A stretch of 64,000 nt of DNA from an uncultured Candidatus Saccharibacteria bacterium (GCA_964402035.1 CAYOAM010000001.1:307558-371557); one strand, 5' to 3'. Counted from the first letter of the stretch, positions 11,425 to 37,995 are shown. Numbers and translations: made by a program. Notes: generated by a model from the letters alone, not told the origin.

Positions 11425-11429
11425 GCATT

Positions 11430-11458: not shown

Positions 11459-11492
11459 CCTAAGAGATCAATCACCGTCATAGTGAGGACAC

Positions 11493-12017: not shown

Positions 12018-12018
12018 T

Positions 12019-12049
12019 ACCTCCACACACCTGTGTGTGAGGTTTTTTT
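12019..12049 (+). terminator. rho-independent terminator
   Basis: CCTCCACACAC-CTG-TGTGTGAGG hairpin + TTTTTTT. Confidence 0.65.
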
Positions 12050-12142
12050 ACATCTCGTGTCAAAGCATGATTCTGCAACTCCTAAGTACTAACTCAAGCC
12101 TGGTTAGACAAGAGTTAGTTTATCTTTCAACTTCCTACCAAC

Positions 12143-22031: not shown

Positions 22032-22365
22032 ACAAGCAGTATAGCAGAACTACATTGGTGTGTAACAAGGCAACCGATTACTTCCCCACCACATATGTTC
22101 GACTTCCCTTTGTAACAACATAGGATTCATATCCTGCGTTGTTATTTCAGCACTAAAGAATAACCGTTCTCATTTGCAGTGCTTCTTCGAGTATTGATTC
22201 TAATTGTCGATAGTCGGAGTCGGTATCAAAAATCTGGGCGCGTGCGTCAGCACGATTGATGACGTGATAGATGTGGTTACCAACATTGACTCTTTCGATC
22301 CGTAGCATGCATATAGCATATCACCCGTTGCGGTTGTTTAATTTAATGGTGGCTGACCCCATTCT

Positions 22366-22422
22366 TTCATTCTTCCATTCTTTTGACCTCATTCTATGCC
22401 ATTCTCCATTCCCCATTCTCCT
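22366..22422. repeat. CATTC(T)/GAATG pentanucleotide microsatellite (~8 copies)
   Basis: ccCATTCTttCATTCTtcCATTCT...CATTCTcCATTCccCATTCT seen directly. Confidence 0.6.
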
Positions 22423-22519
22423 CTTATTGCAAGGACAGAAAGGAAACTAAGATGATGTTTTTGCGTTCCTGGACATTCGTAAAGTCGCAAAAAGAGACAA
22501 AACAATCGTAACTGTCCAC

Positions 22520-22590
22520 ATTCACTCAAGCGTTCACTGCCAAATGGGTAGTATGCAAAGAGGGTGGTGAGATAAGCAATGCGCACAAAA
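22520..22590 (-). pseudogene. degraded rhs fragment (homologous to the LLAYYPFGSQRL segment of the main RHS protein)
   Basis: translation ...LFAYYPFGSERL... and nucleotide similarity to 30860-30910/24380-24420 regions. Confidence 0.45.
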
Positions 22591-22774
22591 CCTTATCCGC
22601 TATTCTTGGTGATGCTAGTACAGCTGAAATTAGGCAACCTGTATGAACCCATCAGAGAGCGTAGAGAGTCTGGAGCACCTCACTCACTTCTACTCTATTG
22701 TACCTTAGTGACAAACCAAACATTATGCAGCAGTTAGTTCGGTTTTTGTGAGTAATTCTTATGAATTAGTGTGG

Positions 22775-23089
22775 TTATAATCCATCAACAGCAGTTGTTA
22801 CTTTTATGACAATGCCTTCACCATTAAAGTCTATACTGCAGTCAACTCCGTTTTGTAGAAGATATATATGCTTTTCGTCGCTCGAGCGCATATCGATATC
22901 CTGACCATCATTTAGTAACCCACTCATAATATGATCTACTTGATCTCTTTGCATACCCACCTTGATATCGTTACAACGCTGTCGTATATCACTCAACTCT
23001 GGATATACAGTGAGATAAATTATAAATATCAGAAAAATTATTATTGGTAATCCTACTGCCATTCCAATGTACTTAATAATTTTTTTCAT
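22775..23089 (-). CDS. small membrane-anchored protein, candidate immunity protein for orphan rhs toxin tip 3
   Basis: 104 aa, N-terminal TM, AT-rich, starts 3 bp after orphan tip 3 stop. Confidence 0.5.
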   Translation of the reverse strand: MKKIIKYIGMAVGLPIIIFLIFIIYLTVYPELSDIRQRCNDIKVGMQRDQVDHIMSGLLNDGQDIDMRSSDEKHIYLLQNGVDCSIDFNGEGIVIKVTTAVDGL

Positions 23090-23091
23090 AT

Positions 23092-24141
23092 TTAATCTTC
23101 TTCACGTTCACCAGAAAGTGTGTTTTTTAGACTGTTAAGTGCATTTGATAATTGACTCAATACTCTACTAAGAGCAGACGTTGCATTGGGGTCAATCGAC
23201 CTACCAAGACCTGCTGTATAGGCGTTGTCATTCAAGTTTGTTATCGAGTTGTTACCAACTCCAGATTGTGTGAGAAGATTTGTAGCAAAGTTATTACTAT
23301 TATGTTGTCCGCTGACATTCGGATTGCCAAAAACTGAGTATTTACCAACAACTTCTGGTGAACTATTGTAGCTATTTACTATGGATGCTTCAAATTCCTC
23401 CGAGGTCATCCCATCCGGGGGTTCAATAGTTTGAATACCGCTATATTGATCACGAGAAAGTCCAAAATCACTGCCGCGATTAACATCCTTGAATAAGTCC
23501 CCTGTAACAAAATTCTCTGTATACCCTCCTAGTGTGACTCTTGAGTAGTCATCAACCCCATCAATTCTTGGTAGTGCATTTGGATTGTCAGGAGTAATGA
23601 GTACAAACGAATGGGCACCAATTCCTCCAATTACCGCTACATCAATTGGTCTGCTTGCCAACTCTACTTTCTCACCTGTAGGATCAAAAAGTATAAGCGG
23701 ATTATTTCTCGCATACGAATAAGTGTTGAACTGTTGTGGGTCTAGCAAGAATTGATTAGGATTGTCACGACTCGCTGGATCCATCGATATCCATTTTCCA
23801 TAATTGCTGTTCAAGTATCTTGCTCCTGCATATGTAAGCTCAGTCTCAGGATCATAGTCATGCCCTGTATAGCGATTCGTTTGTGTAAAGGAACTGGAAG
23901 TGGTGGTACCTATGAATCGTATCTCATCTAAGTATACCGTCTGGGTGGTGGCAGATTCAATGTTAAGAGCGAGGGTATTGTTGTATGAGGAGATTCCAAG
24001 GTCGGAGAGTGGTATGGATACTTCTTGCCAGGTGTTGGTGAGGTATCCACTTGGGAGGTAGTTTTCAATAACGCGGTTTTGGATCACTTGACCAAGGTGG
24101 TTGGTGAAATAGATATCGAGCTCTCCGGTGTTCGTGCCCAT
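23092..24141 (-). CDS. orphan RHS C-terminal cassette 3 (conserved 160-aa RHS-shell terminus + unique C-terminal toxin domain, unassigned)
   Basis: N-terminal 160 aa ~identical to main RHS residues MGTNTGELDIYF...YSYxRNNP; divergent tail after DPTGE. Confidence 0.75.
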   Translation of the reverse strand: MGTNTGELDIYFTNHLGQVIQNRVIENYLPSGYLTNTWQEVSIPLSDLGISSYNNTLALNIESATTQTVYLDEIRFIGTTTSSSFTQTNRYTGHDYDPETELTYAGARYLNSNYGKWISMDPASRDNPNQFLLDPQQFNTYSYARNNPLILFDPTGEKVELASRPIDVAVIGGIGAHSFVLITPDNPNALPRIDGVDDYSRVTLGGYTENFVTGDLFKDVNRGSDFGLSRDQYSGIQTIEPPDGMTSEEFEASIVNSYNSSPEVVGKYSVFGNPNVSGQHNSNNFATNLLTQSGVGNNSITNLNDNAYTAGLGRSIDPNATSALSRVLSQLSNALNSLKNTLSGEREED

Positions 24142-24400
24142 ATAGAGCCAGAATGAGAGGGTGCTGTATGGGGTGGTGTTGAAGGAGCTATGGGTATATG
24201 AGATACCTCCCCATGGAGATGTGTATTGGGCTTTGAGGCTGTGGGTACCTGCGTATGTGGTACTGGTGGAGTTTGTGAGGGTGACCGTCCATGATCCGTT
24301 GTCCGTCCATGGTGAGGTGAAGGAGTCTGCATAGATGTATGAAGAGATGGTGCTTTGACTTCCCCCTCCTTCACTGAGGCGTTCACTGCCTTGGAGCAGA
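23650..24400 (-). repeat. rhs homology block copy D (shared with 30190-31025)
   Basis: near-identical nucleotide runs extending upstream of the orphan start codon in a disrupted frame. Confidence 0.7.
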
Positions 24401-24484
24401 TAATTCCTAATACTTCTCCTATGTATTTCGTTACTATTTCTTCTTGCATCTCTCAGGAACTAAAGGAATACGAGGTAATCAATG

Positions 24485-24700
24485 TTACTTGTCTTCGAGT
24501 CTAAATTTTACACCATGCTCATCCTTAGTCGCTCTTTCAAAAGCCAATTTCCACTCTTCCCAGAATGCTGGGTCGGCGGTTCCTCCATCTTGAAGAATTG
24601 ACATTCCGCCTAGCATCCCACCAATTTCACTTGACTTAGTCTTTTGGTAGTAATTTTCTAGGAAATAGAACATTGCTCTGTATGCTTCTTTTTCATTCAT
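24485..24700 (-). CDS. small cytoplasmic protein, candidate immunity protein for orphan tip 2
   Basis: 71 aa, begins 2 bp after orphan tip 2 stop. Confidence 0.45.
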   Translation of the reverse strand: MNEKEAYRAMFYFLENYYQKTKSSEIGGMLGGMSILQDGGTADPAFWEEWKLAFERATKDEHGVKFRLEDK

Positions 24701-24701
24701 A

Positions 24702-25766
24702 TTAATCTTGATCTTGATCTGATCTTGGTAATCGTCTTTGATGCACTGGTTCAGGAGCCGACAATCCTGTCTCAGAATTGAATGTTCTCGGAGTGACGTT
24801 TTGCCCTCCGTTTATGATTTGACCGTCTCTAGTCTGCACCCAAGTCTGACTACCATTTTTGTTTAATCTTGCCGACCAGGTATTTCCCCACTTATCAGAG
24901 CCAAGAGTAGTACTTGGATCATCTGCAACATTCTGCAGAAGCTGTCTATTCTGGGGAGTGTCAGCGAGATGCCCCACCTCGTCACGGAATATATGAGATA
25001 ACCTATTTTCAGGTATCAGGTGCCTTATGTCTGGCTTCCCATCCAAAGAACCGATTACAATACTAAATACTATTTTCTGGTTCTCAGAAAGACTATCATA
25101 ATTTTCTTGTCCAAACACATAGTACCCAACAGGGTTGGTACTCTGCGGAGCCAAAGCAGAGTCAAATGTTTCGTCTGGTGTATAGGCGTAGTTTGCGTCA
25201 TCAAGTGCCAAGCTGCCAAATACCGCCAGTGCAATGCTTACCAATATTGGCACTGGATTTTCACCATTATTATCGACGAATACTATCGGGTTGTTTCGAG
25301 AGTAACTATAGCTATTCAACTGTTGCGGGTCTCTCAAAAGAAAATGTTGTCGTATTCCTTTTGCCTCTAGCGAGTTAGCATCTCCAAGTAACAATGACAC
25401 CGGATCCTGCGCAGTGAACCGTCCTGTGTTTCCATCATAATACCTCGCACCCATGTACGTGAGACTTGTTTCTTCGTCATAGTCATGCCCGGTATATCGA
25501 TTGCTCTGTGTAAAGGAACTGGAAGTGGTGGTACCTATGAATCGTATCTCATCTAAGTATACCGTCTGGGTGGTGGCAGATTCAATGTTAAGAGCGAGGG
25601 TATTGTTGTATGAGGAGATTCCAAGGTCGGAGAGTGGTATGGATACTTCTTGCCAGGTGTTGGTGAGGTATCCACTTGGGAGGTAGTTTTCAATAACGCG
25701 GTTTTGGATCACTTGACCAAGGTGGTTGGTGAAATAGATATCGAGCTCTCCGGTGTTCGTGCCCAT
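24702..25766 (-). CDS. orphan RHS C-terminal cassette 2 (unique tail with a hydrophobic helix and HxxD-containing domain, unassigned)
   Basis: N-terminal 165 aa match main RHS incl. RYYDGNTGRFTAQDPV; junction VDNNGE replaces DPxGL. Confidence 0.75.
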   Translation of the reverse strand: MGTNTGELDIYFTNHLGQVIQNRVIENYLPSGYLTNTWQEVSIPLSDLGISSYNNTLALNIESATTQTVYLDEIRFIGTTTSSSFTQSNRYTGHDYDEETSLTYMGARYYDGNTGRFTAQDPVSLLLGDANSLEAKGIRQHFLLRDPQQLNSYSYSRNNPIVFVDNNGENPVPILVSIALAVFGSLALDDANYAYTPDETFDSALAPQSTNPVGYYVFGQENYDSLSENQKIVFSIVIGSLDGKPDIRHLIPENRLSHIFRDEVGHLADTPQNRQLLQNVADDPSTTLGSDKWGNTWSARLNKNGSQTWVQTRDGQIINGGQNVTPRTFNSETGLSAPEPVHQRRLPRSDQDQD

Positions 25767-26165
25767 ATAGAGCCAGAATGAGAGGGTGCTGTATGGGGTG
25801 GTGTTGAAGGAGCTATGGGTATATGAGATACCTCCCCATGGAGATGTGTATTGGGCTTTGAGGCTGTGGGTACCTGCGTATGTGGTACTGGTGGAGTTTG
25901 TGAGGGTGACCGTCCATGAGCCTGCGTCTGTCCATGGAGACTGCCAGCTGTCGGTGTATAGGTATGACGATGTGGTGGTGTCTCCTCCCCCTTCATCGAG
26001 ACGTTGGCTGCCGAAGGGATAGTATGCGAGGAGGGTGGTGAGGTATCCATCATCATCGGTTTGTGCTTGGGTGCTGCCGAGGTGGTCGAGGTGGGTGTGA
26101 TAGGTGCTTGCAGATCCGCCTGTGCCAGAGACTGATGCTATGAGGGTGTCACCTGCGTAGAGAAA
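25290..26165 (-). repeat. rhs homology block copy C
   Basis: ~0.88 kb near-identical to 30190-31025 including ~400 bp upstream of the orphan ATG (ends at AGDTLIASV-equivalent). Confidence 0.7.
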
Positions 26166-26211
26166 AAGGTACCTGACACCCTATTCCAAAAAGTGACACT
26201 TATTACTATTT

Positions 26212-27504
26212 TTATGAAGGAGACGGAATTGTTTCATTTTTTGAACTTTCTACAATAAACTTTGCACGTTCGTAAAGCTCATCATAAGTAATGATTTCAA
26301 TATTTCTGGAATCACGCCGAAAAAGTTCAAAGGTTTTTGCTTTGATTAAAGCTTCTTTATTTTCTCCTCCAAACTGCCTTGAATGACCAATAACCAAAAT
26401 GGCTTTTGGATCATAAGATTTTTGTTTAATTGGTTTCCCTATATCATCAAAGTGACTTGAAGGATCTGACTCTGCCTTAACTTGCAGACTAGCTTTTTGC
26501 TCCAGGATTTGCGACAACGCAGACGTTAAATCATCTGATAATTTCCAAGCATTTGAACGGTTTTTGTCTCTGCCATACAATTCCGTATCAGGTTTTTTCA
26601 ACTCAACTAAAACAGTAAACTTATTACACCCTAATAAGAAATCAGAAACTGCAGCTTCCTTACCAGACATATCGACTCCAGATACAGTCACCTCTCTTTG
26701 TAAAATAGAGAGGAATCTATAATCTAAACCATAACCAAAAATCCAATTATTTTCTTCAAAAAAATGTTGCCACGCAGCTTCTGCTCCAAGCTGTTTAATG
26801 TTGTTCTCTGTTTTATATTTATCGACATATCCATCTTCCTCTAATAATTTCCTAAATATTTCCAGCTTACTTTTTCGGTAGCCAATATTAACAATATCGT
26901 TTGAAGTAATTATTCCACTACTAAGTAGCTCCTCAATAATTTTGTGACCATCCTCTCTCATTAGTAGAGTAGTAATCTTCTTTTTTGTATCCTCATCAAT
27001 TGTAGGCAAGTTGTCTGTATTGAGTGAAATTTTTCGTTCGTTTATACTTCCAAGATCTAATGCAGATATCATCTGCATATAGCCGATTATTTGTTTAAAA
27101 AAACCATATGAGAATGTGATTTGTTCTTCTTGGGGTTCGTACCCAGTTTTCTTGTAGTACTTAAAACGTTTGACAGAAATACTTTTGATTTCGTTACTTT
27201 CTTTGATGAACGTAAAGGTTGTTTTAATCTTATTTCTTACTCGCTCGGGGTGCTCAAACTCAATTGCATCAGGAACTCCATTATCATCACTGGAGACGAC
27301 GGTAAAAAACTTTCCAGCACCATTTTTAAATTGATGCGTATATAGAGTATCTCGAACGTAATTATCAACGATTTCTGATTCAGTAGATTCTTCGTATTTA
27401 TGTAAACCCATATTAGTACCTAGTATGCACCGATAAATTAGACTTTCAAAGTCTATCATTAACGTCTTACGCCGTATCGCAAAAGCACTGTTACTCGAAG
27501 GCAT
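26212..27504 (-). CDS. Shedu-like DUF4263-type PD-(D/E)xK nuclease (putative anti-phage defence protein)
   Basis: QREV...SDFLLG...VLVELKKP E/D/ExK motif set, C-terminal ILVIGHSR...EIITYDELYERA; ~33% GC, embedded in rhs cassette array. Confidence 0.45.
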   Translation of the reverse strand: MPSSNSAFAIRRKTLMIDFESLIYRCILGTNMGLHKYEESTESEIVDNYVRDTLYTHQFKNGAGKFFTVVSSDDNGVPDAIEFEHPERVRNKIKTTFTFIKESNEIKSISVKRFKYYKKTGYEPQEEQITFSYGFFKQIIGYMQMISALDLGSINERKISLNTDNLPTIDEDTKKKITTLLMREDGHKIIEELLSSGIITSNDIVNIGYRKSKLEIFRKLLEEDGYVDKYKTENNIKQLGAEAAWQHFFEENNWIFGYGLDYRFLSILQREVTVSGVDMSGKEAAVSDFLLGCNKFTVLVELKKPDTELYGRDKNRSNAWKLSDDLTSALSQILEQKASLQVKAESDPSSHFDDIGKPIKQKSYDPKAILVIGHSRQFGGENKEALIKAKTFELFRRDSRNIEIITYDELYERAKFIVESSKNETIPSPS

Positions 27505-27575
27505 TAATCATGACTGCCCCACTTTGTATTAACAAATTAGGAGTCAGGCACCTTAGTCACGATTATCTGACACAA

Positions 27576-27938
27576 CTAGAGTAGATCAATTTCTGCTACA
27601 AGTGTTAACTCAAGATCTTCTACTTCAGCACTGGTCATTGCTTTTTGTTTATTTAAGAAACCTTCCTTGATAAGTAAGGGAACTATTCTTAGTATTGTAT
27701 CTCTACTCACATCCTTAATTATAAATTCATGTACATCAATACTTGAAAAGCCTTTTCTTTCTATCGAATCCTGTACTTCCTGAATGTGGCGATACGGCTG
27801 AATAGCAGACACATTGTAAAAAGAACCATCCAACTGGAGATAAAAGTCTCTCAAATTTTTTTGTTCGACCTCCCACTCAATTGCCGCGTCAGTATAACCA
27901 GTTGTATTCTTATGAAAGTATATCTTTAATTTTTTCAT
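27576..27938 (-). CDS. candidate immunity protein for orphan tip 1
   Basis: 120 aa, AT-rich, begins 3 bp after orphan tip 1 stop. Confidence 0.5.
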   Translation of the reverse strand: MKKLKIYFHKNTTGYTDAAIEWEVEQKNLRDFYLQLDGSFYNVSAIQPYRHIQEVQDSIERKGFSSIDVHEFIIKDVSRDTILRIVPLLIKEGFLNKQKAMTSAEVEDLELTLVAEIDLL

Positions 27939-27941
27939 GTA

Positions 27942-28985
27942 TCATCCTTCTATTTTTTTAGTCTTAATCTTTTCTAGCTCCGCTTGGAACTGCTTTGGCG
28001 TCAAGTTGCCGTTTGGTACTATTTCGTAATGATTTGGATTATCTCCTCGTTGGATAATTTTGAGAGTATCAGGTAGTGAAGTTATTTGATTGGCACCACC
28101 AAATTTCCCAAGACTTGAAGCGTCTGTATTTACAGAAATACCTCTAATATCAGCTACAAAACCATCAGCATCAATCTTGATTTCGTTTGGTTTTATACTG
28201 AATAGATTATTCCCTGAACCACCCCTAAACACAGGCACTAAGTTATCTCCATTCCTAACCAAAGAACCCACATTCGCCTTATTGCCAAACGCCATGAAAG
28301 CCAACTGTAGCGAGAGCTTCTGTGAAGGACTCATGTTGTCATAACCCGGCACCAAAGGATTAGTTCCCGATGGAACATTTGTTAGGTCGGTCGATTCAGC
28401 CGGCGAATACGCATAATTAACATCAGTTGCAAAATTAACAATACAAGCAAATGCAATCGCGAGTCCTAGCGGTAGGATATCACCTCCAGGGTCATACACA
28501 ATCATTGGATTATTACGTCCGTAGCTATATGTATTAAGCTGTTGCGGGTCTCTAAGTAAGAGTTCCAACGGTCGTCCATACTGTGATTCCCAAGTACGAG
28601 CTCCTAGATCAAGATTTGCCGGATCCATCGATATCCATTTTCCATAATTGCTGTTCAAGTATCTTGCTCCTGCATATGTAAGCTCAGTCTCAGGATCATA
28701 GTCATGCCCGGTATATCGATTGCTCTGTGTAAAAGAACTGGAAGTGGTGGTACCTATGAATCGTATCTCATCTAAGTATACCGTCTGTGCAGTAGCAGAT
28801 TCAATGTTAAGAGCAAGAGTGTTGTTGTATGCACTGATACCAAGGTCAGAGAGTGGTATCGAGACCTGTTGCCAGGTGTTGGTCTCAAAACCGAGAGGAA
28901 GATAGTCTTCAATGACACGATTTTGGATGACTTGACCAAGGTGATTGGTGAAGTATATATCAAGCTCTCCGGTGTTCGTGCCCAT
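27942..28985 (-). CDS. orphan RHS C-terminal cassette 1 (unique tail; FRGG...E pattern faintly ART-like, unassigned)
   Basis: N-terminal 153 aa match main RHS; tail diverges after YDPGGD. Confidence 0.75.
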   Translation of the reverse strand: MGTNTGELDIYFTNHLGQVIQNRVIEDYLPLGFETNTWQQVSIPLSDLGISAYNNTLALNIESATAQTVYLDEIRFIGTTTSSSFTQSNRYTGHDYDPETELTYAGARYLNSNYGKWISMDPANLDLGARTWESQYGRPLELLLRDPQQLNTYSYGRNNPMIVYDPGGDILPLGLAIAFACIVNFATDVNYAYSPAESTDLTNVPSGTNPLVPGYDNMSPSQKLSLQLAFMAFGNKANVGSLVRNGDNLVPVFRGGSGNNLFSIKPNEIKIDADGFVADIRGISVNTDASSLGKFGGANQITSLPDTLKIIQRGDNPNHYEIVPNGNLTPKQFQAELEKIKTKKIEG

Positions 28986-29085
28986 ATAGAGCCAGAATGA
29001 GAGGGTGCTGTATGGAGTGGTGTTGAAGGATGATGGGTGTGTATATGAGATACCTCCCCATGGAGACGTGTATTGGGCTTTGAGG
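28520..29085 (-). repeat. rhs homology block copy B
   Basis: 28986-29085 identical to 30611-30710 upstream of orphan ATG; ends abruptly at GATTAATCGTGACTG. Confidence 0.7.
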
Positions 29086-29089
29086 CCGA

Positions 29090-29521
29090 TTAATCGTGAC
29101 TGTCACCTTTCTTTCTTGCTGCCCCAAGTATTATCATACTTAAACATATTGGGGGAACTAAAATTATCAATAAGTTAATGATCCAATAGTCTGAATTGGG
29201 GAGTTTGATCAGGTCGCCAGAGAAAAACAAAACTGCATATACTGCACTAAAAATAACAATTAAGTTTGAATTTACTTTATTAGGAGCTTCAATCAATGAA
29301 ATTAATTTGAATATTACTAAAAAAATTAACGAACTTACAGATGAGATACAAAAGAATATAAATAGTAAATATGCTGTTAATTTAATTACGTTAGCATCTA
29401 CGACTCCATCTAACATATAAGAATACAAACCCGTATAGTAATGAATTGCCATAAAGACAGGACATGCCACTACCGCAGCGATCCAGCCACCTATAAAAGT
29501 ATTTAATGAATTTTTTCTCAC
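29090..29521 (-). CDS. polytopic (4-TM) membrane protein, candidate cognate immunity protein of the main RHS toxin
   Basis: 143 aa, 4 hydrophobic helices, ~30% GC, 17 bp downstream of RHS stop. Confidence 0.55.
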   Translation of the reverse strand: MRKNSLNTFIGGWIAAVVACPVFMAIHYYTGLYSYMLDGVVDANVIKLTAYLLFIFFCISSVSSLIFLVIFKLISLIEAPNKVNSNLIVIFSAVYAVLFFSGDLIKLPNSDYWIINLLIILVPPICLSMIILGAARKKGDSHD

Positions 29522-29538
29522 ATTATTTAATGATTAAT

Positions 29539-32500
29539 TTAGTAATCAACATTTACATTGATTGGTTTGTTCCAAGTATTGTTAAACCATTTATGGAACG
29601 AGTTATTATTACTGGTCAAATCAATACATCCTGCCGAACCCGCGGTCCAGCCTCCATGAATATAATATCCAGTATCTCCGCTTGAATTACTTAATTCAGT
29701 CCGTTGGGTTCCCCAAGCGGCAGGACCTCCTGGCCAAGGCCCAATTTTTCCCCCTATGAGTGGTATATTTTGAGTGATTCCGCTTACTAGTGAGCCAGCT
29801 TTCCTTGCACCAGAAACGTCAGCCCAATTCTGTGTTTTGTTAGGGTCGGCACTCCATATTCCCTCTGGAATTGGATCATTCCCACTATTCCCAGAAACCC
29901 CTTCCCAACTAAGCCCAGGCATAGCAATACCGTACGAGGTATCGTATGCAGAGAGAGTCTTATTATCAAAATTTAATTCAAGATTCTGGCCAGGAAGAAT
30001 AATATAATTTCCGGCTTTAATTTTGTCTGGGTTGTTTATTCCATTAGCTTTAGCAATTTGACTGATTCCTAGTGATGTTCCATACTTTTCGTTTATCTGC
30101 TTTTGGATATGCGTAAGTGTATCTCCTTTTTCAATTTCTCCTGAATCAACATTAAATAATCCAAGTGGGTCTATAAATCTGAGAGGGTTATTTCTGCTAT
30201 ATGCATAGTAATTAAATTGTTGAGGGTCGTACAGAAATGTTTCTGGACTCTGCTGACTCACTGGATCCTGCGCAGTGAACCGTCCTGTGCTTCCATCATA
30301 ATACCGTGCCCCCATGTACGTGAGACTTGTCTCTTCGTCATACTGGTGCCCTGTATATCGATTCGTTTGTGTAAAGGAACTGGAGGTTGTGGTACCCACA
30401 AATCGTATCTCATCTAAGTATACCGTCTGGGTGGTAGCAGATTCAATGTTGAGTGCAAGGGTGTTGTTGTATGCACTGATACCAAGGTCTGAGAGTGGTA
30501 TAGATACCTGTTGCCAGGTGTTGGTCTCAAAACCGAGAGGAAGATAGTCTTCAATGACACGATTTTGGATGACTTGACCAAGGTGATTGGTGAAGTATAT
30601 ATCAAGCTCTCCGGTGTTCGTGCCCATATAGAGCCAGAATGAGAGGGTGCTGTATGGAGTGGTGTTGAAGGATGATGGGTGTGTATATGAGATACCTCCC
30701 CATGGAGACGTGTATTGGGCTTTGAGGCTGTGGGTACCTGCCGATACTGGAGTGGTGGCGTTTGAGAGGGTGACACTCCACGAACCTCCATCGGTCCATG
30801 GTGAAGTGAGAGAGTCTGCATAGAGGTATGAAGATGTGGTGGTGTCTCCTCCCCCTTCATCGAGACGTTGGCTGCCGAAGGGATAGTATGCGAGGAGGGT
30901 GGTGAGGTATCCGTCGGTGTCGGTTTGTGCTTGGGTGCTGCCGAGGTGATCGAGGTGAGTGTGGTATGTGCTTGCAGATCCGCCTGTGCCAGAGACTGAT
31001 GCTATGAGGGTGTCACCTGCATAAATATGTTTGGTTGCAGATGAGCCATACTCATAGAGATTTGATGGATAGAATGTCGTGCCAGAAGGACCGGTCTTTT
31101 GCGTACGTTGTCCGGTGTGGTCGTATGCATAGGTGACGGTCGTGCCACTTGATACACTTTGCGTGAGGCGATTTTGGTAGTTCCAGGTGTTCGCAAGACC
31201 TGCGCTAGTTGACGCAAGGTTTCCGTTGGTATCGTATGCATAGGTAACTCCGTTGATACTCGTTGCCGCATGAGGGTTCGCATAATTGCTTCCGGTATTG
31301 CCGCTATAGGTGTATGCACCAACATCTGATTTTGAAGTGATGTTGCCGATAGCGTTGTATACGTATGTCTGCGTGTATGGTGTGCTGCTTGCGCCGGTTG
31401 TCGAGGCACTGGTGAGGCGGTAGAGGTCATCGTATGTGTATGTGGTGGTTGCAGCACCATGGGTATCGGAGCGATCCACGATTTGGGTTATGTTCCCGAC
31501 GGCGTCATAGGTGTATGAGAGATTTTGGACTGTCGCTGCATAGTATGGATACGTGAGTGTCGTTGAAGTACCACTTCCGGTACTTGAAGCAAGTACAAAT
31601 GTGGAAGTTGTGGTACTCCATGCACCTTCTGCATTCCAAATGTCCCAAAACTTGATGCGCCAGTAGAATGTGGTTGACGAAGCAAGTGCTGATCCTGCGT
31701 ATGCGATATCAGGACTGCGGCCACCTTGTGCCGTGGTACTCGATAGCGTTGTTTTTGTTGAATCCCAATATGAGGAGGTGAAAGCGGATGAAGTTGAAAC
31801 TTGTATCTGGTATGAAGCTGCAGTATCGGTTGCATTGCTGTCGTTAAAGATTGCAGAAAACTCAGGGGTGCCATCGGTCACACTCGTCGGATTTGTTTGT
31901 CCTTCGGCAAGGAGAGATGATGGTGCAGTCGGTGCAGAGTTGGTAGCAGATGCAGTATAGGTAGCGTATATAGATACTTTGCGGGCGAAATATGTTGGTG
32001 AAGTTATTGGGTTTGACCAATCAGGATAGGTGATCGATTTAAGCGCGTATTGGTTTGTTGATCCTGTATCCCAATAGACTGTTGCAGAGCTGTCGTGTCC
32101 CTGCCAGAGCCAGTAGGTGGTGCCAGACGCAAGACTATAACTTGGCATGGTCATATCTACCCATGATGCAGTCGTGCCCACCCCACCGGTGACGCTTGAG
32201 GTCGCGAGCGGAGCGTTTGGTGCACCACTCGAATCAGAATAAAGTGCTGCGATTTTGTTCATGGTGCCTGCTGTCGTCTTTTTGGTATACGCAGTTATCT
32301 TGGAGAGCGTACCGTTTTCACTGTTCATAGAAAACTTTGAACCTATGTAGTTCCAGGTGTCAGCATTGGTGCCACCGATCGTACCATAGCCGAAGGTGGG
32401 ATCTACGCGTACCGGATAGGTTGCGGTATCTAGATACTCTTGCGGGACAATCACGCGCAGTGCCCCTTTCTCATACGAGAGTGATCCCCAGACCGCCACA

Positions 32501-35500
32501 CCTTTTGCGTCAACAATCTTCGGGCGGAAAATATGAAAGACTTTTCCCGATTTAAATTCCCCATCTTTCTTTTCTTTGTGGTACACGGCGTATGAACCCA
32601 CAATATTTTCCGGGCGACGTACAACCACGACACCTTCTGCGTCTGTACATGCAGTTTCGGTGCATGAGAGTTTTTCTTCGAAAGTTTCTTCGGTCAGAGG
32701 TGGCTGGTACAAAAAGTCGAGATCGTCGGTTCCTGAAAGTGTAAAGGTGAATGTATTTTTTTGTGGTTTCTCATCGAGGACCACTTCAATCTCAAAACCA
32801 CCCGCCTCCATACCTTCTCGGGGAGCAAGTGGGTACGCCTCAACCGATTCGCTTCCCCCATCCCATTCCACAACGTTTCGTAATGGAGAATAATATGGGA
32901 CCGCAAACGGAAGTTCGTAACGAACAGAAAGATCAACCGCGCCGCTCCAGGTATTTAGGCGTACTTCTGGCAGTGATTTGTCGACGTGCGCAGTGTATGT
33001 ATCAAACCTGGTATCGGCATCAGAGATAAATTGATACGTACGTGCAGTCTCGCGAGGAGTTTTCTGTGAAAGTCCATCTGGTATAAACAGTATTTCTTCC
33101 TTCAGTACCGGCTCGAGTGCTGAGTCTGTCGTCGTCGCCGTGGTGGTTCCCAATAGATCTCTTTGTACGGTTGTAGTGGTGGCAATCTCATTGGCAGTAT
33201 CTTCATGCAGTACGGTGTCGGTTGTAGTAGCATCGAGGACTTCAGGTGTCGTGGTAGGCACTGCTATGGACGGAGACTCTGCGTCGGTGAGGGAGTTTTC
33301 CAACACCTGCATTAAATCTTCAAAGTCAGGTGCGTCAGTGGTGTGTACTGCTTCATTTTCCATCTCAACCGCTCCCATAGTTTCGGTAGCATCAGCTAAG
33401 AGTGCTGCTTCCACACCACGCAGTTCATCTCCGCCTCCCCCTGTAGGTGGAGGCACCGACGTCACGATACTGGAAAGACGATAGAGCGCGTTTGCATCGT
33501 ATGTCTTTGTGGTACTTGCTCCATTGCCACGCTGTTCATAGACCACCAGTCCGGTAGGTGCATAATCAATATCGCTGATAAGTGACTGCCACGACCCACC
33601 GCTCTCTTTTTGCTGTACTTTTTCAAGCTGTCCTGCGCTGTTGTATATATATGCCACGCGTGATAGATCAGGAAAGACAATCTCGGTTTGCTGTCCTTGT
33701 CGATCGTAATCATAGGAAATGACAAAGGTCGAGGTTGCAATGGTCGTTGTCGCAAAATCTGGGAGGCTATTTGGGGTATACGCGTATGAAGTCGTTGCAG
33801 CTCCTAGACTCACTGCTTGGCACAACTGCATTTTGCCATTTGTGCAGGTGTCATAGGTATAGGTTATTTCTGTACCTGTTCCTCCGGTGTAGTTTTCTGT
33901 GAGCGGACGGTTAAGATCGTCGTATGTGCGCACTATCACCTGTCCCTTAGGATCAGTGGTGGTCGCGACATTTCCTGCAGCATCGTATGCAAAACTCCAG
34001 TTGCCAAAGGTGTTATCACTTGCTGCATGGAGATCTTGCATAGTGAGACGACGAGAGAGACCGTCATAGGTAATGGCACGTACATTCCCTAATGCGTCGG
34101 TGATTGTTGCAAGGTTGTCGTTGGTCGTCCACAGATATGCGGTCGCGTACGTACTGGTGCTGTTGTATTCAGTAGTGGTCGAGAGGCGACCAAATGCATC
34201 ATACGAGAACATCTTCTTATTGCCGATCGGATCAAAAACTGTTTCAGACCACTGGTCGTAGACCGTTGCGGTTGTGCCCACAGCAGTTGTGGAAGTTGCC
34301 ATGCGTCCAAGCGCATCATACACATAGGTTGTATACAGATTGCTTTGCGAAGTCGACGCAGTACGTGCAGAGCCAGTATCAAAGTACGGCAATGATTCCT
34401 TTTCCAAGAGTCCATTATTTCCATACACAAGATCACGTACAGCGTACTGATTGGAGTCCTCCGCCTCGACACGTGTCTGCATTTTCCTGCCAAATCCATC
34501 TGCATACTCGTATGTGTCCGTTGTCGTAGCGGTATTTAAATATGACCTTGTGTTAACCGACACCGCACCTTGTGTGTCAGTATAGGTGTATGTGGTTTTA
34601 GTAACTGGTGTTCCGGTCTGTGGGTCGGGAATCTTTTCTTCTTTCGGTCGATCAAATGCATCATAGACGATAACGGATGTACGCCCGTTTGGATCGGTCG
34701 AAGTACTTACCTTTCCACTTGAGTAATCATATGTCTGTATCGTGGTGTACCCCAATGGGTTTGTGGTAGTTGCAGGATACAAATTTAGTGCGTCATAGGT
34801 ATACGATGTAGCCTTATCACGAGCATCTTTATACTGTGTCACTAGCCCGTAACTGTTGTATGTTTTTTCTTCATCAATGTACGTACTGCCACTCACCCAC
34901 GATTCACGCTTGGTGAGATTGCCGTCGGTTACATTACCAAGGCTTTGATTGTCATAATACAAACGATCTTCTTTTATCTTGGTTGCTGCATAGTTGAGCA
35001 ATCGTTGCGATGATGGCAACCCTACGATGTACGCTGTGGTATTTGTGGCATAGGTATAGGCGACCGTGCGCTTGTCCGTATCTGAGTCAACATAGGTACC
35101 ATCCATAGAGGCATCTACACTTCCCCACTCAGTAATCGATGTTGTATTTCCATAGCTGTCATATGTAAATGACTTAGCCAGATCACGATGATCGCCATCA
35201 CCATCGTATGAAAGCACCACCTCACTAAGCGGAGAGACAAAAGTTGCATTATCGCCTCGATCAGCCTCAAGCCAATTGGTCCATTGAATATTGTATAGAT
35301 TGTTCGTACGATCAAATAAGTCAACGCGATATGATAGACCGATACGCGCAATGGCGTCTCCAGACTCATTACTGCTGGTACTATTGCCGTTCCCTTGGTG
35401 CTGATAGGTAACGGACCGCGAGAGTCCACTATTCTTCTCAACCGCACCAAAGCCAGCAAATTTTCTGTCGCGCGGACTGCTTGAGGAAAAATAAAAATCA

Positions 35501-37995
35501 CCGTCCTTATATGAGTACGTATCTGTCCATGATTCCCCAACTATCGGCTTATATGTGGTGGTCGCTACCGTCTGTAGCAACATCGGTAGGTGTGGGTTTG
35601 CAACAGAAGACGTACTTAGTCGATACTCTGGACTACCTTTGTACTCAAAATGTACCTCTCCACCTCTCTTATCAGTGGCGGTAGCAAGCATATCGGACAC
35701 CATACCACTGCCTATGTATACTGTATTCTCTAAGTAAGCATCGTAATGATCTTTGCGACTCACTAATATATCAGTGACACCGTCTCCATTTGTATCAGCA
35801 AGCCGTGCTCCACTATCATGTGCGTTTTCTCGCACAAACGGGACAGGAATTGAATACGTAAGATCTTCAGTCCAGCCATTACCTCTGTGTAGATACACCT
35901 TATTAATCACGGTACTACCATAGTGATCTGTTCTATATATAAGAATATCAACAAGACCATCACCATTTACATCTCCTAATCGTGAGCCAGAATCAATACT
36001 GTTTTCATATACAAATGGAACTGGGATCGTCCATGATGTATCCTGTGTCCAACCTGAACCGGTATTAAAATATACCTTGTTGGCCAATGTGCTTCCATTG
36101 TGATCAGTTCGGAAAATCAGGATGTCCGTGAGACCATCGCCATTAACATCAGCGAGACGCGCACCTGAATCACTTGTATTTGAATAAATAAATGGCTCTG
36201 GTAACACCCATGAAGCATTCAGACTCCATCCAGAACCGGTATTGAGATATACTTTGTTTACAAGAGTGGATCCATTGTGATCTGTGCGATACATTAAAAT
36301 ATCAGTGAGCCCATCTCCATTGGCGTCTGCGAGACGCGCACCAAGATCATATGGACCTTCTTGAAATATTTCTGGGATTATCCAAGACATATCTAAATTC
36401 CAGCTATCACCATCATTGATGTATACATTTTTGTACTCGGTCGCAGGAGACCCAAGAATTTTAAAACTTTGGAGAAGGTCAGCAAGACCATCACCATTTA
36501 CATCAACCAAATTAAATCCTTTGTCCTCACCATTTTCATAGAACAGCTCTGGCACAATAAATGTTGAGCTTGCAATCCAATCTGCTCCTGTGTTTAGGTA
36601 AACACCCTGTTGGGTGGAGCCTCCAGCCCCTGCCTCTTCGTAGCTCTGGACGATGTCAAGTAATGCATCACCGTTAACGTCAGCAAGGTAGGAACCTGCG
36701 CTGTACGTGTTATTTCTTACAAATGGCGCTGGTACTGTAGTAGAAGCTTGTACCCATGCATTACTAGATGTGCTATACGTAAAAGAGGTGTCAGGTAGCG
36801 TAGAGGAAGCAGCACTATTTAGACCAATTTCTGTTATTGTTTTTAGCAAAGAACGCCTATCATTATTTGCTGCACTATAGCTCAAATTGTATTCATGCAC
36901 TTTTGTACCACTTATAAATGTCTGTATTTTATCGACACGATACGTAGTATCAATCGGAAACTTCGAAACATGCGAGCGTGTCAAGTCGTCACGAGTTTCT
37001 CTCACAAAACGTATTTCAAAAGGACCGTCAGTGGTCCCACTGCCTGTGTAAACGATAGTGTCGGGATATATCTGACCTGCTTCCTTGTGGTACGAGTACT
37101 TGATGTAATTATCATTGGTGTCACGGATTTCTGAAACCATCCATGCGTAAACCTCACTTGTTGAGGAAGCGTTATCTTTTCGTGCATTGGTAGTGCTGCC
37201 GAAAGTGTAGACCAACCCTTGCTTGTCGGTTGCCATCCATACATTGTTGGTATACACATATTTCAAAAAGGATCCCGCATCTACCTTAGGACGATATTCA
37301 GTAGTAGACCCTACTTGAACAAGTTCACTGGAGAATGAAGAATAAAATGTTGAACTAGTACTTACGTATAGATTTTCTACGCCATGTTTGTTAAGTCGTT
37401 TTATAAACGGTATATCAATACTCCATCCAAATCCCACCCAATCAAACTCAGAAACAGCGGCACTATTGTATGAGAGGTGTATTGCAGGCGTACGATCATT
37501 TCTTCCCGGGGGAAAGGACAATGGGTATTCAAATGACAGAGATCCATCGAGCGGACTAACTAGTAGCAGATCTGTCACGAAACTACGAGTATTGCTCATT
37601 CCCTGACTTTCACTACCAGCCTCTCCACTACCCATGGCTAACGACTGTGTAATTGGCGGTTCATCTCCTATCGTTTCCACTCCATCTGATACTGAAATCT
37701 CGCTATCACCAACAGTAGAATCAGTAGCTTTCTTTGTTTTCGTTGCATCTGGCACAAGCGCTTTTACTTCGCCTGATTGAAGCAACACAGTTTCAGTCTG
37801 CGAGTTGGCTACTACTCCTGTAGCGCCACCCGCAAGAGAAGTTTGCTGTTCAGTCACTGCTATCTGTTCATCTGCAAAGACATGCACCAATGGTTGAGTC
37901 AACAAAAAAACCGCGAGGGTAAAACTCGCGGTTTTTTTCGACAAAGCAAATACAGTATTTCTTAAGAAAAGACGCCCTAAACGTCTACGATGCAT
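29539..37995 (-). CDS. giant fused TcB/TcC-like RHS (YD-repeat) polymorphic toxin with LysM + L,D-transpeptidase-fold C-terminal toxin domain (2818 aa)
   Basis: signal peptide; SpvB-like N-terminal region; 5 tandem FG-GAP-like repeats (LADVNGDGLTDIL...NTGSGW); many YD repeats (YxYDxxGR); RHS core end PxxxxDPLGL; C-terminus GDTLTHIQKQ...AGNYIILP (LysM) and YYIHGGWTAGSAGCIDL (His...GC(I)xL as in YkuD). Confidence 0.9.
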   Translation of the reverse strand: MHRRRLGRLFLRNTVFALSKKTASFTLAVFLLTQPLVHVFADEQIAVTEQQTSLAGGATGVVANSQTETVLLQSGEVKALVPDATKTKKATDSTVGDSEISVSDGVETIGDEPPITQSLAMGSGEAGSESQGMSNTRSFVTDLLLVSPLDGSLSFEYPLSFPPGRNDRTPAIHLSYNSAAVSEFDWVGFGWSIDIPFIKRLNKHGVENLYVSTSSTFYSSFSSELVQVGSTTEYRPKVDAGSFLKYVYTNNVWMATDKQGLVYTFGSTTNARKDNASSTSEVYAWMVSEIRDTNDNYIKYSYHKEAGQIYPDTIVYTGSGTTDGPFEIRFVRETRDDLTRSHVSKFPIDTTYRVDKIQTFISGTKVHEYNLSYSAANNDRRSLLKTITEIGLNSAASSTLPDTSFTYSTSSNAWVQASTTVPAPFVRNNTYSAGSYLADVNGDALLDIVQSYEEAGAGGSTQQGVYLNTGADWIASSTFIVPELFYENGEDKGFNLVDVNGDGLADLLQSFKILGSPATEYKNVYINDGDSWNLDMSWIIPEIFQEGPYDLGARLADANGDGLTDILMYRTDHNGSTLVNKVYLNTGSGWSLNASWVLPEPFIYSNTSDSGARLADVNGDGLTDILIFRTDHNGSTLANKVYFNTGSGWTQDTSWTIPVPFVYENSIDSGSRLGDVNGDGLVDILIYRTDHYGSTVINKVYLHRGNGWTEDLTYSIPVPFVRENAHDSGARLADTNGDGVTDILVSRKDHYDAYLENTVYIGSGMVSDMLATATDKRGGEVHFEYKGSPEYRLSTSSVANPHLPMLLQTVATTTYKPIVGESWTDTYSYKDGDFYFSSSSPRDRKFAGFGAVEKNSGLSRSVTYQHQGNGNSTSSNESGDAIARIGLSYRVDLFDRTNNLYNIQWTNWLEADRGDNATFVSPLSEVVLSYDGDGDHRDLAKSFTYDSYGNTTSITEWGSVDASMDGTYVDSDTDKRTVAYTYATNTTAYIVGLPSSQRLLNYAATKIKEDRLYYDNQSLGNVTDGNLTKRESWVSGSTYIDEEKTYNSYGLVTQYKDARDKATSYTYDALNLYPATTTNPLGYTTIQTYDYSSGKVSTSTDPNGRTSVIVYDAFDRPKEEKIPDPQTGTPVTKTTYTYTDTQGAVSVNTRSYLNTATTTDTYEYADGFGRKMQTRVEAEDSNQYAVRDLVYGNNGLLEKESLPYFDTGSARTASTSQSNLYTTYVYDALGRMATSTTAVGTTATVYDQWSETVFDPIGNKKMFSYDAFGRLSTTTEYNSTSTYATAYLWTTNDNLATITDALGNVRAITYDGLSRRLTMQDLHAASDNTFGNWSFAYDAAGNVATTTDPKGQVIVRTYDDLNRPLTENYTGGTGTEITYTYDTCTNGKMQLCQAVSLGAATTSYAYTPNSLPDFATTTIATSTFVISYDYDRQGQQTEIVFPDLSRVAYIYNSAGQLEKVQQKESGGSWQSLISDIDYAPTGLVVYEQRGNGASTTKTYDANALYRLSSIVTSVPPPTGGGGDELRGVEAALLADATETMGAVEMENEAVHTTDAPDFEDLMQVLENSLTDAESPSIAVPTTTPEVLDATTTDTVLHEDTANEIATTTTVQRDLLGTTTATTTDSALEPVLKEEILFIPDGLSQKTPRETARTYQFISDADTRFDTYTAHVDKSLPEVRLNTWSGAVDLSVRYELPFAVPYYSPLRNVVEWDGGSESVEAYPLAPREGMEAGGFEIEVVLDEKPQKNTFTFTLSGTDDLDFLYQPPLTEETFEEKLSCTETACTDAEGVVVVRRPENIVGSYAVYHKEKKDGEFKSGKVFHIFRPKIVDAKGVAVWGSLSYEKGALRVIVPQEYLDTATYPVRVDPTFGYGTIGGTNADTWNYIGSKFSMNSENGTLSKITAYTKKTTAGTMNKIAALYSDSSGAPNAPLATSSVTGGVGTTASWVDMTMPSYSLASGTTYWLWQGHDSSATVYWDTGSTNQYALKSITYPDWSNPITSPTYFARKVSIYATYTASATNSAPTAPSSLLAEGQTNPTSVTDGTPEFSAIFNDSNATDTAASYQIQVSTSSAFTSSYWDSTKTTLSSTTAQGGRSPDIAYAGSALASSTTFYWRIKFWDIWNAEGAWSTTTSTFVLASSTGSGTSTTLTYPYYAATVQNLSYTYDAVGNITQIVDRSDTHGAATTTYTYDDLYRLTSASTTGASSTPYTQTYVYNAIGNITSKSDVGAYTYSGNTGSNYANPHAATSINGVTYAYDTNGNLASTSAGLANTWNYQNRLTQSVSSGTTVTYAYDHTGQRTQKTGPSGTTFYPSNLYEYGSSATKHIYAGDTLIASVSGTGGSASTYHTHLDHLGSTQAQTDTDGYLTTLLAYYPFGSQRLDEGGGDTTTSSYLYADSLTSPWTDGGSWSVTLSNATTPVSAGTHSLKAQYTSPWGGISYTHPSSFNTTPYSTLSFWLYMGTNTGELDIYFTNHLGQVIQNRVIEDYLPLGFETNTWQQVSIPLSDLGISAYNNTLALNIESATTQTVYLDEIRFVGTTTSSSFTQTNRYTGHQYDEETSLTYMGARYYDGSTGRFTAQDPVSQQSPETFLYDPQQFNYYAYSRNNPLRFIDPLGLFNVDSGEIEKGDTLTHIQKQINEKYGTSLGISQIAKANGINNPDKIKAGNYIILPGQNLELNFDNKTLSAYDTSYGIAMPGLSWEGVSGNSGNDPIPEGIWSADPNKTQNWADVSGARKAGSLVSGITQNIPLIGGKIGPWPGGPAAWGTQRTELSNSSGDTGYYIHGGWTAGSAGCIDLTSNNNSFHKWFNNTWNKPINVNVDY
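30190..31025 (-). repeat. rhs homology block copy A (inside main RHS gene; source of orphan homology)
   Basis: shared with three orphan cassettes. Confidence 0.75.

Follow-up and report, generated by a model that had tools for sequence, protein, structure and literature searches.

The 64,000-nucleotide (nt) stretch of contig CAYOAM010000001.1 (GCA_964402035.1; positions 307558-371557) analyzed here, referred to as the window, carries a chromosomal polymorphic-toxin locus that consists of a main rhs gene with an immunity candidate and three orphan cassettes, each combining a toxin tip with an immunity gene. We assign this reading a probability of about 0.8. It had been proposed in a first-pass annotation made from the sequence alone, and the open reading frames (ORFs), the domain matches and the blastn comparisons agree with it. 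All genes of the RHS locus are located on the minus strand. In agreement with that annotation, a membrane protein ORF comes after the rhs gene of approximately 8.5 kb, and three truncated cassettes come next, each accompanied by a small ORF. We predict about four transmembrane (TM) segments for the membrane protein, and the cassette ORFs measure 347, 354 and 349 amino acids (aa). Its feature list was incomplete, as a Shedu gene, a fourth core scar, an IS200-like fragment and two out-of-frame overlapping ORFs of 121 and 115 aa were absent from it.

The main rhs gene

29539-37995, minus strand: main rhs gene, 8,457 nt, one ORF of 2818 aa (ORF call and translation)
30385-30834, minus strand: CBM-like beta-sandwich of about 150 aa (aa 2388-2537), inserted between AYYPFGS and RYTGHQYD of the core end
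30157-30390, minus strand: Rhs-associated core domain (aa 2536-2613), ending in NNPLRFIDPLGL; TIGR03696 7.5e-19, 68 bits against a cut-off of 32.5
29992-30135, minus strand: LysM domain of the main tip (aa 2621-2668); Pfam LysM 1e-4, 22.6 bits against a cut-off of 20.9, with LysM proteins matched in the PDB
29542-29985, minus strand: main toxin domain, 148 aa (aa 2671-2818), putative Tlde1/YkuD-like LD-transpeptidase fold with the motif YYIHGGWTAGSAGCIDL
29090-29521, minus strand: imm0, a 143-aa polytopic membrane protein with about four predicted TM segments

The main protein is identical to the database protein P0001 of ENA contig NODE_5_length_452957 (sample ERZ3430527), to which the window belongs, and is built, from the N-terminus, of a signal or anchor, SpvB, an FG-GAP beta-propeller, an RHS/YD shell with an Ig-like insertion, the CBM-like insertion, the core end and the tip. 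A basic stretch followed by a hydrophobic segment (aa 23-41, ...HVFA/DEQ) gives the N-terminus the appearance of a Sec signal or anchor. The SpvB N-domain (aa 148-308; Pfam SpvB 3.6e-15) precedes a beta-propeller of four FG-GAP repeats (Pfam FG-GAP_3 3e-17), and the shell was recognized by RHS_repeat PF05593 (Pfam, 3.5e-21) and TIGR01643 (NCBIfam, 5e-11), its Ig-like insertion by Ig_Rha78A_N (Pfam, 1.7e-12). RHS homologues of the protein also match TcdB_toxin_midN. The main protein and all three orphans exceeded the cut-off of the core model TIGR03696, and NNPLRFIDPLGL is the predicted autoproteolysis site of the main protein. The cleavage-type motif reads IDPLGL in the main protein, YDPGGD in orphan 1 and FDPTGE in orphan 3, while VDNNGE of orphan 2 lacks the proline.

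The CBM-like domain reached sub-threshold Pfam matches to SGBP_B_XBD (1.6e-4) and CBM30. Related proteins have just 10-20 residues at its insertion point; P0002 carries the domain at the same position, and P0045, P0017, P0030 and P0027 carry it at other positions of the shell. These varied insertion points suggest that it behaves as a movable surface decoration, possibly with a role in target binding. Two copies of the domain are present in the Methylocystis protein P0076.

Neither a PAAR nor a DUF4150-type domain was detected in the main protein with Pfam and NCBIfam, no gene of a type VI secretion system (T6SS) was found among the larger neighbouring ORFs scanned, and none of the ORFs of at least 545 aa in the window, all of which were scanned, is TcA-sized or TcA-like. 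Scans of the window for tRNAs and Rfam families gave no matches, and promoter and terminator predictions were not enriched over shuffled sequences. The GC content is 0.451 in the window and 0.466 in the rhs core, compared with 0.40-0.44 in the tips and 0.31-0.40 in the immunity genes. Such AT-richer tips and immunity genes are a composition pattern known for enterobacterial rhs tips.

Shared core DNA and mosaic identity

30338-30728 versus 28696-29086, minus strand: repeat of the main gene and orphan 1; blastn, 94.4% over 391 nt
30259-31020 versus 25398-26156, minus strand: repeat of the main gene and orphan 2; blastn, 87.3% over 765 nt
30338-30876 versus 23852-24390, minus strand: repeat of the main gene and orphan 3; blastn, 84.0% over 543 nt
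30259-31020, minus strand: putative recombination substrate in the main gene, from ...IYAGDTLIAS / AYYPFGS via the CBM-like domain to RYTGH(Q/D)YD

The nucleotide identity between the main gene and the orphan blocks is highly significant by blastn. The near-identical copies of 0.56-0.88 kb described earlier turned out to be 0.39-0.77 kb long and 84-94% identical, so that near-identity is confined to sub-tracts: the perfect tracts shared with the main gene measure 223 nt in orphan 1, 80 nt in orphan 2 and 53 nt in orphan 3. Between orphans 2 and 3, identity reaches 97.8% over 461 nt. Outside these blocks, the only copy of the shared core DNA that blastn revealed in the window is a 57-nt scar, located where the array ends distally.

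All three orphan ORFs begin with MGTNTGELD, as had been noted, but the methionine corresponds to the internal M2457 of the main protein. In-frame core homology runs on upstream of this ATG for about 33, 130 and 80 codons (100, 390 and 250 nt) in orphans 1, 2 and 3 to three different 5' breakpoints (29086, 26156 and 24390, respectively). The common start is therefore an artefact of ORF calling and does not mark a common truncation point. The upstream frame of orphan 2 is unbroken core back to its breakpoint, with no alternative start; those of orphans 1 and 3 are open, but diverge before the nearest stop.

The 3' limit, in contrast to these differing 5' breakpoints, is common to all shared blocks and lies at position 30338 of the main gene, at the RYTGHxYD motif. 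Beyond it, each of the four modules diverges from the others and has its own relatives elsewhere. Residues 86-346 of orphan 1 match residues 2263-2522 of P0045 (75%), and residues 83-345 of orphan 3 match residues 1751-2013 of P0014 (69%). At the DNA level, orphan 1 including its immunity gene matches locus L018 (78% over 969 nt), and in the DNA matches to L018, L019 and L022 the start coincides with the 3' limit of the intra-locus repeat or lies no more than about 70 nt from it. This shared limit and the separate relatives from there on indicate that the exchange unit comprises the last ~85 core residues, the tip and the immunity gene.

A four-way alignment with sliding identity showed that the copies are mosaics. 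The main gene and orphan 1 are 100% identical over 30506-30728 (223 nt), orphans 2 and 3 are 100% identical over 413 nt, and the main gene resembles orphan 2 at 97-100% over 31019-30880. Just 3' of the common block, orphan 1 pairs with orphan 3 (98%) and the main gene with orphan 2. Such a pattern among four copies requires recombination or gene conversion between them.

Two ORFs rich in Pro, Ser, Thr and His, of 121 aa (24084-24449, minus strand) and 115 aa (25709-26056, minus strand), are out-of-frame readings of the repeated core and almost certainly spurious. One of the two is annotated publicly as a gene.

Tips and putative immunity partners

The four tips are unrelated to one another, and none of their toxin domains was matched at the curated thresholds of Pfam or NCBIfam; single-sequence phmmer searches of the tips against the PDB returned LysM only. 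The first-pass annotation had considered the tips unassigned to known toxin families. This holds at the Pfam thresholds, but three of the four receive consistent assignments by remote homology. None of the tails is a housekeeping domain, and all four pairs of tip and small ORF recur as neighbours in unrelated genomes: orphan 1 with imm1 in L018, orphan 3 with imm3 in L019, orphan 2 with imm2 in L023 and L024, and the main tip with a TM protein in L021 and L022.

The main tip is provisionally assigned as a LysM domain followed by a Tlde1-like enzyme of the LD-transpeptidase/carboxypeptidase fold. The match of the main tail to YkuD is sub-threshold (Pfam, 0.0025, 18.8 bits against 23.4). Its relatives P0136, P0137 and P0139 are located at the ends of RHS fragments, and a distant relative, P0147 (40% identity, 1e-17), matches Tlde1_dom with 1.5e-5 and 25.8 bits against a threshold of 30.1. 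With a profile of five tail sequences, the top match in the PDB was Tlde1a (7UMA, E 0.0019), in which IHDS..YSHGCI is aligned to IHGG..GSAGCI of the profile. Of the catalytic motif H-x(n)-[S/T]-H-G-C, the putative counterpart IHGGWTAGSAGC retains Ser, Gly, Cys and the first of the two His at Tlde1a spacing, with Ala in place of the second His.

The start of imm0 lies 17 nt past the main stop; the gene caller had taken a 108-aa version starting at 29416. L021 contains, after a homologous tip, an uncalled multi-TM ORF whose N-terminal 46 aa are 41% identical to imm0, and with E 3e-5 over these 46 aa this is the weakest of the four tip-immunity links. In L022, the tip is followed by a 152-aa multi-TM ORF with no significant sequence similarity to imm0. 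We infer that imm0 is the immunity partner of the main tip.

27942-29086, minus strand: orphan 1; ATG ORF 27942-28985, 347 aa, with about 33 extra core codons upstream
27576-27938, minus strand: imm1, 120 aa, soluble, isoelectric point (pI) 5.2; 72% identical to the gene directly after P0045 (L018)
24702-26156, minus strand: orphan 2; ATG ORF 24702-25766, 354 aa, with about 130 extra core codons (from ...LYAGDTLIAS)
24485-24700, minus strand: imm2, 71 aa, soluble, pI 5.1; adjacent-gene homologues in L024 and L023
23092-24390, minus strand: orphan 3; ATG ORF 23092-24141, 349 aa, with about 80 extra core codons
22775-23089, minus strand: imm3, 104 aa, with an N-terminal TM anchor (aa 3-35) and a small external domain

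In orphan 1, half a CBM-like domain and the core end (YDPGGD; TIGR03696 2.5e-12) are joined through a hydrophobic linker to a toxin domain that spans about 100 aa. Its 178-aa tip corresponds to the C-terminus of the full-length RHS protein P0045 (79% identity, 1e-90), and the last ~100 residues belong to a family that recurs on PT-HINT proteins, on RHS proteins and on other scaffolds. The Tse2 model (PF18648), which describes toxins of an ADP-ribosyltransferase fold, matched below threshold in this tip and in four relatives (Pfam, best 25.4 against 26.6 bits), and the top PDB match of the toxin profile was Tse2 (5AKO, E 0.0045), over the C-terminal ~70 residues only. We provisionally regard the domain as Tse2-like. 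imm1 begins 3 nt past the toxin stop and has the Shine-Dalgarno-like GAAGGA.

Orphan 2 has retained the CBM-like domain in full; after the core end (VDNNGE) and a hydrophobic linker comes its toxin domain, which spans about 95 aa and bears the motif HIFRDxxGH. This domain is found at the C-termini of small secreted, myxobacterial and RHS-like proteins. Its model came closest to CdiA-CT RNases, and the tip is provisionally predicted to adopt a BECR-type RNase-like fold of the kind known from RelE, colicin D/E5 and CdiA-CT. Directly downstream of P0141 (L024) lies a gene with 45% identity (6e-21) to the partner imm2, and the gene following P0142 of Hyalangium (L023) reaches 50% (6e-10).

The first ~95 aa past the cleavage motif are common to the tips of orphan 1 (27942-28480) and orphan 2 (24702-25260), with 29-31% identity. 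This region, which opens with a hydrophobic helix and stands ahead of unrelated toxin domains, recurs in P0045 and P0123 and could serve membrane entry. It is lacking from the main tip and from the tip of orphan 3.

In orphan 3, a CBM-like domain and the core end (FDPTGE) precede a tip of some 190 aa that is characterized by an invariant His and the motif N[S/C]NN. The tip corresponds to the C-terminus of the full-length RHS protein P0014 (70% identity, 2e-86). Wherever upstream sequence exists, its 81 representative homologues directly follow NNPxxxxDxxG. The gene that immediately follows P0014 (L019) has 40% identity (9e-20) to imm3. The tip family gave no match in Pfam (60 and 20 homologues scanned) and none in the PDB (profile of 20 homologues), and an AlphaFold2 model from a three-sequence alignment failed (pLDDT, the predicted local distance difference test score, 40) and was not used. 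The His...N[C/S]NNF pattern had suggested a permuted papain fold of the PPPDE/DeSI type, but an hhalign comparison with a DESI1 sequence, which is a weak test, did not support it (probability 0.2).

Across the three orphan cassettes, the immunity genes start 1-3 nt past the toxin stops. The 30 nt before the MGTNTGELD ATG are identical in all copies and contain no Shine-Dalgarno sequence, and the orphan ORFs have no hydrophobic N-terminus. Since both a ribosome-binding site and an export signal are missing, the orphan toxins are probably silent. The orphan immunity genes could nevertheless be expressed and protect against the toxins of neighbours. By predicted topology, imm0 and imm3 are membrane proteins, and imm1 and imm2 are soluble and acidic; the tips of orphans 1 and 2, predicted to act in the cytoplasm, thus have soluble partners. 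This topology would fit a division into wall-acting and cytoplasm-acting toxins.

The embedded Shedu gene and the distal end of the array

26212-27504, minus strand: Shedu (SduA/DUF4263) anti-phage nuclease gene, 430 aa; PF14082 4.3e-28, 98.9 bits against 27
22515-22571, minus strand: fourth core scar of 57 nt with no tip (…LFAYYPFGSERL…), 79% identical to 30850-30906 of the main gene
22153-22308, minus strand: IS200/RAYT-like Y1 transposase fragment, 51 aa; Y1_Tnp 0.023

The Shedu gene is located in cassette 1, between imm1 and the core fragment of orphan 2, with the repeats of cassettes 1 and 2 on its sides. Its product matches the PADLOC model SduA PDLC00392 (5e-144), residues 36-422 aligning to profile positions 8-393 of 396, and its GC content is 0.344 compared with 0.451 in the window. 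The independent Logan contig SRR7369912_833437 is 100% identical to positions 26127-28650, in which the orphan-1 tip, imm1 and the Shedu gene are contiguous, and it ends in the repeats on both sides. Recombination of the main gene with orphan 2 or orphan 3 would delete the Shedu gene together with the orphan-1/imm1 module. A deltaproteobacterial metagenome-assembled genome (MAG) contains an 873-aa ORF (L010, 5418-8039) whose C-terminus is 34% identical to the Shedu protein of the window. It is located 2 kb upstream of a protein with a CBM-like domain (9743-13048), which may be a coincidence.

At the distal end, the 51-aa fragment is 52% identical (8e-15) to the N-terminus of an intact 222-aa Y1_Tnp protein in a second array on the same contig (L017). 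The scar and the transposase fragment suggest that a further cassette may have been lost here.

Probable host group and a second array

Fifteen of the 19 best organism-named RHS homologues come from Patescibacteria (Pacebacteria, Ryanbacteria, Vogelbacteria, Adlerbacteria, Uhrbacteria, Paceibacteria and others), and more than 100 close architectural homologues were found in this group. The host is thus probably a Parcubacteria-type Patescibacterium (candidate phyla radiation, CPR), as judged from these homologues. Exact look-ups of 11 proteins, 10 of them housekeeping, led to clusters of one or two sequences for ten and to no entry for one. The first-pass annotation had called the organism an unusual setting for a switching array. 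This is borne out in that it is probably a Patescibacterium, but it is weakened by the numerous close homologues and by other arrays in that group.

Such a second array is located on the same contig about 130 kb away (L017, 10001-24211). It comprises an RHS gene encoding 2763 aa (P0005), a 486-nt repeat of 93% identity, two orphans, one of them with a weak Ntox44 match, and several small TM proteins as immunity candidates. An intact IS200/RAYT-like Y1 transposase between short inverted repeats and a further pair of genes encoding 179 and 105 aa are also present, and the array ends in a core scar (L017:24091-24211) comparable to that at 22515-22571 of the window. Arrays likewise follow RHS genes in a Kaiserbacteria MAG and on another contig. 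GTDB species genomes scanned with the conserved block of our locus yielded only CBM-like matches of 27-38% in unrelated MAGs and no related array.

The locus in the window is flanked by housekeeping genes (PGI, ROK, DoxX, SppA, MsrA, A2M, TyrRS, CysRS and DnaB). Near the gene of a 2222-aa alpha-2-macroglobulin (13952-20620, minus strand), a PBP1C-type penicillin-binding protein with Transgly, Transpeptidase and BiPBP_C domains is encoded at 9364-11424 (plus strand). The pairing of PBP1C with alpha-2-macroglobulin is typical of diderm bacteria and would be unexpected should the host be a monoderm-like Patescibacterium.

Discussion

What the sequence data demonstrate are the anatomy, homology and mosaicism of the locus and the joint inheritance of tips and immunity genes across genomes; export, autoproteolysis, toxicity, immunity and tip switching are proposed on this basis and from better-known relatives. 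The main protein, in which a TcB-like N-terminus of SpvB and FG-GAP beta-propeller is fused to the RHS/YD shell, would be exported by the Sec pathway. By analogy to solved Tc-BC and Rhs cocoons, the shell would enclose the C-terminal tip and free it by autoproteolysis at NNPxxxxDPxG. The main tip would then attack peptidoglycan outside the cytoplasmic membrane. RecA-type recombination across the shared 0.39-0.77 kb could fuse the main gene to any of the orphan tips, for which the perfect main-orphan tracts of 53-223 nt are long enough. In Salmonella, recombination-mediated deployment of an orphan rhs tip has been demonstrated experimentally (PMC3967940). This precedent and the mosaic identity of the four copies suggest that tips may be switched at our locus, as proposed earlier. 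No alternative junction between the main gene and an orphan was found in the few independent contigs available.

Several observations weigh against this interpretation of the locus. The missing junction is one of them; the Logan contigs break at the repeats, and a scan of JGI metagenomes with the conserved block gave no matches. The order of the cassettes is known from one SPAdes contig, and the taxonomy rests on the names of RHS homologues and not on marker genes. No delivery partner, neither TcA nor T6SS, was found in the 64-kb window. The cleavage motif of orphan 2 is DNNGE instead of DPxG. The second His of the catalytic pocket of Tlde1a, which is H129 of its catalytic motif (PMC9638812), is replaced by Ala in all five members of the main-tail family, and it is unclear how a polytopic membrane protein such as imm0 would neutralise a wall-acting enzyme.

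The alternative that survives best regards the orphans as passive debris of successive horizontal acquisitions, each of which displaced the prior module downstream. They would persist solely because their immunity genes protect against the toxins of neighbours, and the toxin fragments would never be redeployed. The orphans indeed have no start codon context, Shine-Dalgarno sequence or export signal, their breakpoints differ as independent displacement predicts, and the array closes with a scar that has no tip. The tips, immunity genes and Shedu gene are lower in GC (0.31-0.44) than the core (0.466), which suggests a foreign origin, and the failure to detect a recombinant junction fits as well. 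However, no orphan reading frame is interrupted, neither within its 347-354 codons nor in the in-frame extension upstream, and the perfect tracts of 223 and 413 nt within blocks that are otherwise 84-94% identical argue for recent gene conversion and, hence, for copies that interact. Moreover, redeployment by recombination is documented in Salmonella (PMC3967940). We consider this alternative possible but doubtful; it overlaps with a locus of main toxin and spare cassettes and does not exclude it.

An assembly artefact, in which several strain variants of a single rhs 3' end would have been joined in tandem during metagenome assembly, is highly improbable. The source is a short-read metagenome contig, and an independent assembly is broken by repeats at exactly these points. 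Yet unique sequence is present at each junction (imm0 to the orphan-1 fragment, imm1 via Shedu to the orphan-2 fragment, imm2 to the orphan-3 fragment), the cassettes keep unequal core lengths, and most repeats are diverged enough (84-94%) to be assembled, only orphans 2 and 3 reaching 97.8% over 461 nt. The Logan contigs reproduce the unique segments of the locus at 100% identity, one run extending from the orphan-1 tip through imm1 to Shedu and another from the orphan-3 tip through imm3, the transposase fragment, SppA and MsrA to A2M. In addition, the same layout occurs at the second locus and in other genomes. Just as hard to uphold is the idea that the orphans are stand-alone genes translated from the MGTNTGELD ATG into intracellular or differently exported toxins of about 350 aa: the ATG is kept in all four copies and gene callers start the ORFs there, but it is an internal Met of the main protein within a conserved block, has 30 identical upstream nt with no Shine-Dalgarno sequence and in-frame homology beyond them, and its product would begin in the middle of a beta-sandwich with no signal peptide.

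A polymorphic-toxin locus with displaced spare tips invites comparison with several known systems. Arrays of main and orphan RHS genes are textbook knowledge in enterobacteria, where divergence of the Rhs proteins begins right after PxxxxDPxGL. The locus described here diverges about 85 residues before the DPxG motif, at RYTGHxYD. It shares with the rhs arrays of Salmonella Typhimurium LT2, E. coli and Serratia (PMC3967940, PMC10539506) the same-strand 3' fragments that have core DNA in common with the full-length rhs gene, an own tip and immunity gene in each fragment and the lack of start and export signals, homologous recombination being the known route of deployment there. Unlike these arrays, it has no link to PAAR, VgrG or T6SS, its N-terminus consists of signal peptide, SpvB and beta-propeller, a CBM-like domain lies in the recombination tract, one cassette includes a Shedu gene, and the host is probably a Patescibacterium.

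In the TcB-TcC component of the Tc toxins of Photorhabdus and Yersinia, a single polypeptide likewise unites SpvB, FG-GAP beta-propeller and RHS shell, and its toxic C-terminus comes after an autoproteolysis motif. The present locus differs by the lack of a TcA-like partner in the window, by antibacterial-looking tips with adjacent immunity genes, by the orphan arrays and by the Ig-like and CBM-like decorations. WapA of Bacillus subtilis, a signal-peptide- and Sec-dependent YD/RHS toxin of a monoderm whose C-terminal tip varies and is paired with an immunity gene downstream, would be a comparable case in a cell with no T6SS; it is not known to have an SpvB/beta-propeller module and is wall-anchored. 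Displaced toxin-immunity modules downstream of a main gene also characterize the CdiA-CT/CdiI orphan arrays. The two-part tips of orphans 1 and 2 recall their combination of entry domain and toxin, if the linker indeed serves entry, whereas the scaffold is an RHS shell here and a TpsA filament there.

Regarding the individual tips, the main tail aligns to Tlde1a of the Salmonella T6SS pair Tlde1/Tldi1 (PMC9638812) over about 130 residues including IH...GC, with the same His-Cys spacing. It differs by its sub-threshold matches, the Ala in place of H129, the LysM domain ahead, the RHS delivery and a polytopic membrane neighbour compared with the periplasmic Tldi1. Tse2 of Pseudomonas aeruginosa is the best Pfam and PDB match of the orphan-1 family, and its pairing with Tsi2 resembles that of orphan 1 with a small soluble acidic partner; however, only the C-terminal ~70 residues align, below threshold, and the immunity protein has no detected similarity to Tsi2.

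To a specialist in polymorphic toxins, the locus is unsurprising and follows the classical logic of a main toxin plus spare tips. Its value lies in the description of an RHS array in a probable Patescibacterium, a member of a group whose RHS toxins have barely been covered by the searchable literature, although hundreds of such proteins are present in databases: a paper on Saccharibacteria mentions them only in passing (PMC6031116), and they are absent from the text of a 2024 perspective on Patescibacteria (PMC11665869). Two tip families with no Pfam model, that of orphan 3 (His/N[S/C]NN) and that of orphan 2 (HIFRDxxGH), could be delimited together with their immunity partners. Also worth noting are an exchange unit that begins inside the core end, with a recombination tract that crosses an inserted CBM-like domain, and a defence gene embedded in a toxin cassette. 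Two loci on one contig, each with an 8-kb gene and spare cassettes, would represent a heavy investment if the genome has the small size typical of the group.

Ultrasmall Patescibacteria have no T6SS and live attached to host cells. It is a speculative and rather unlikely extension of our findings that these bacteria may attack hosts or rival epibionts mainly by means of Sec-exported, self-contained RHS cocoons of the BC type, with exchangeable tips of two delivery classes. The wall-acting tips, i.e. LysM plus Tlde1-like enzyme and perhaps the family of orphan 3, could do without any entry step, while the cytoplasm-acting tips would bear the shared hydrophobic entry linker. With the Shedu gene inside a cassette between recombination repeats, one recombination event would exchange toxin, immunity and phage defence at once. 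If it is true that CPR bacteria use such toxins on their hosts, the proteins described here would be candidates for the damage caused by epibionts or for competition at the host surface.

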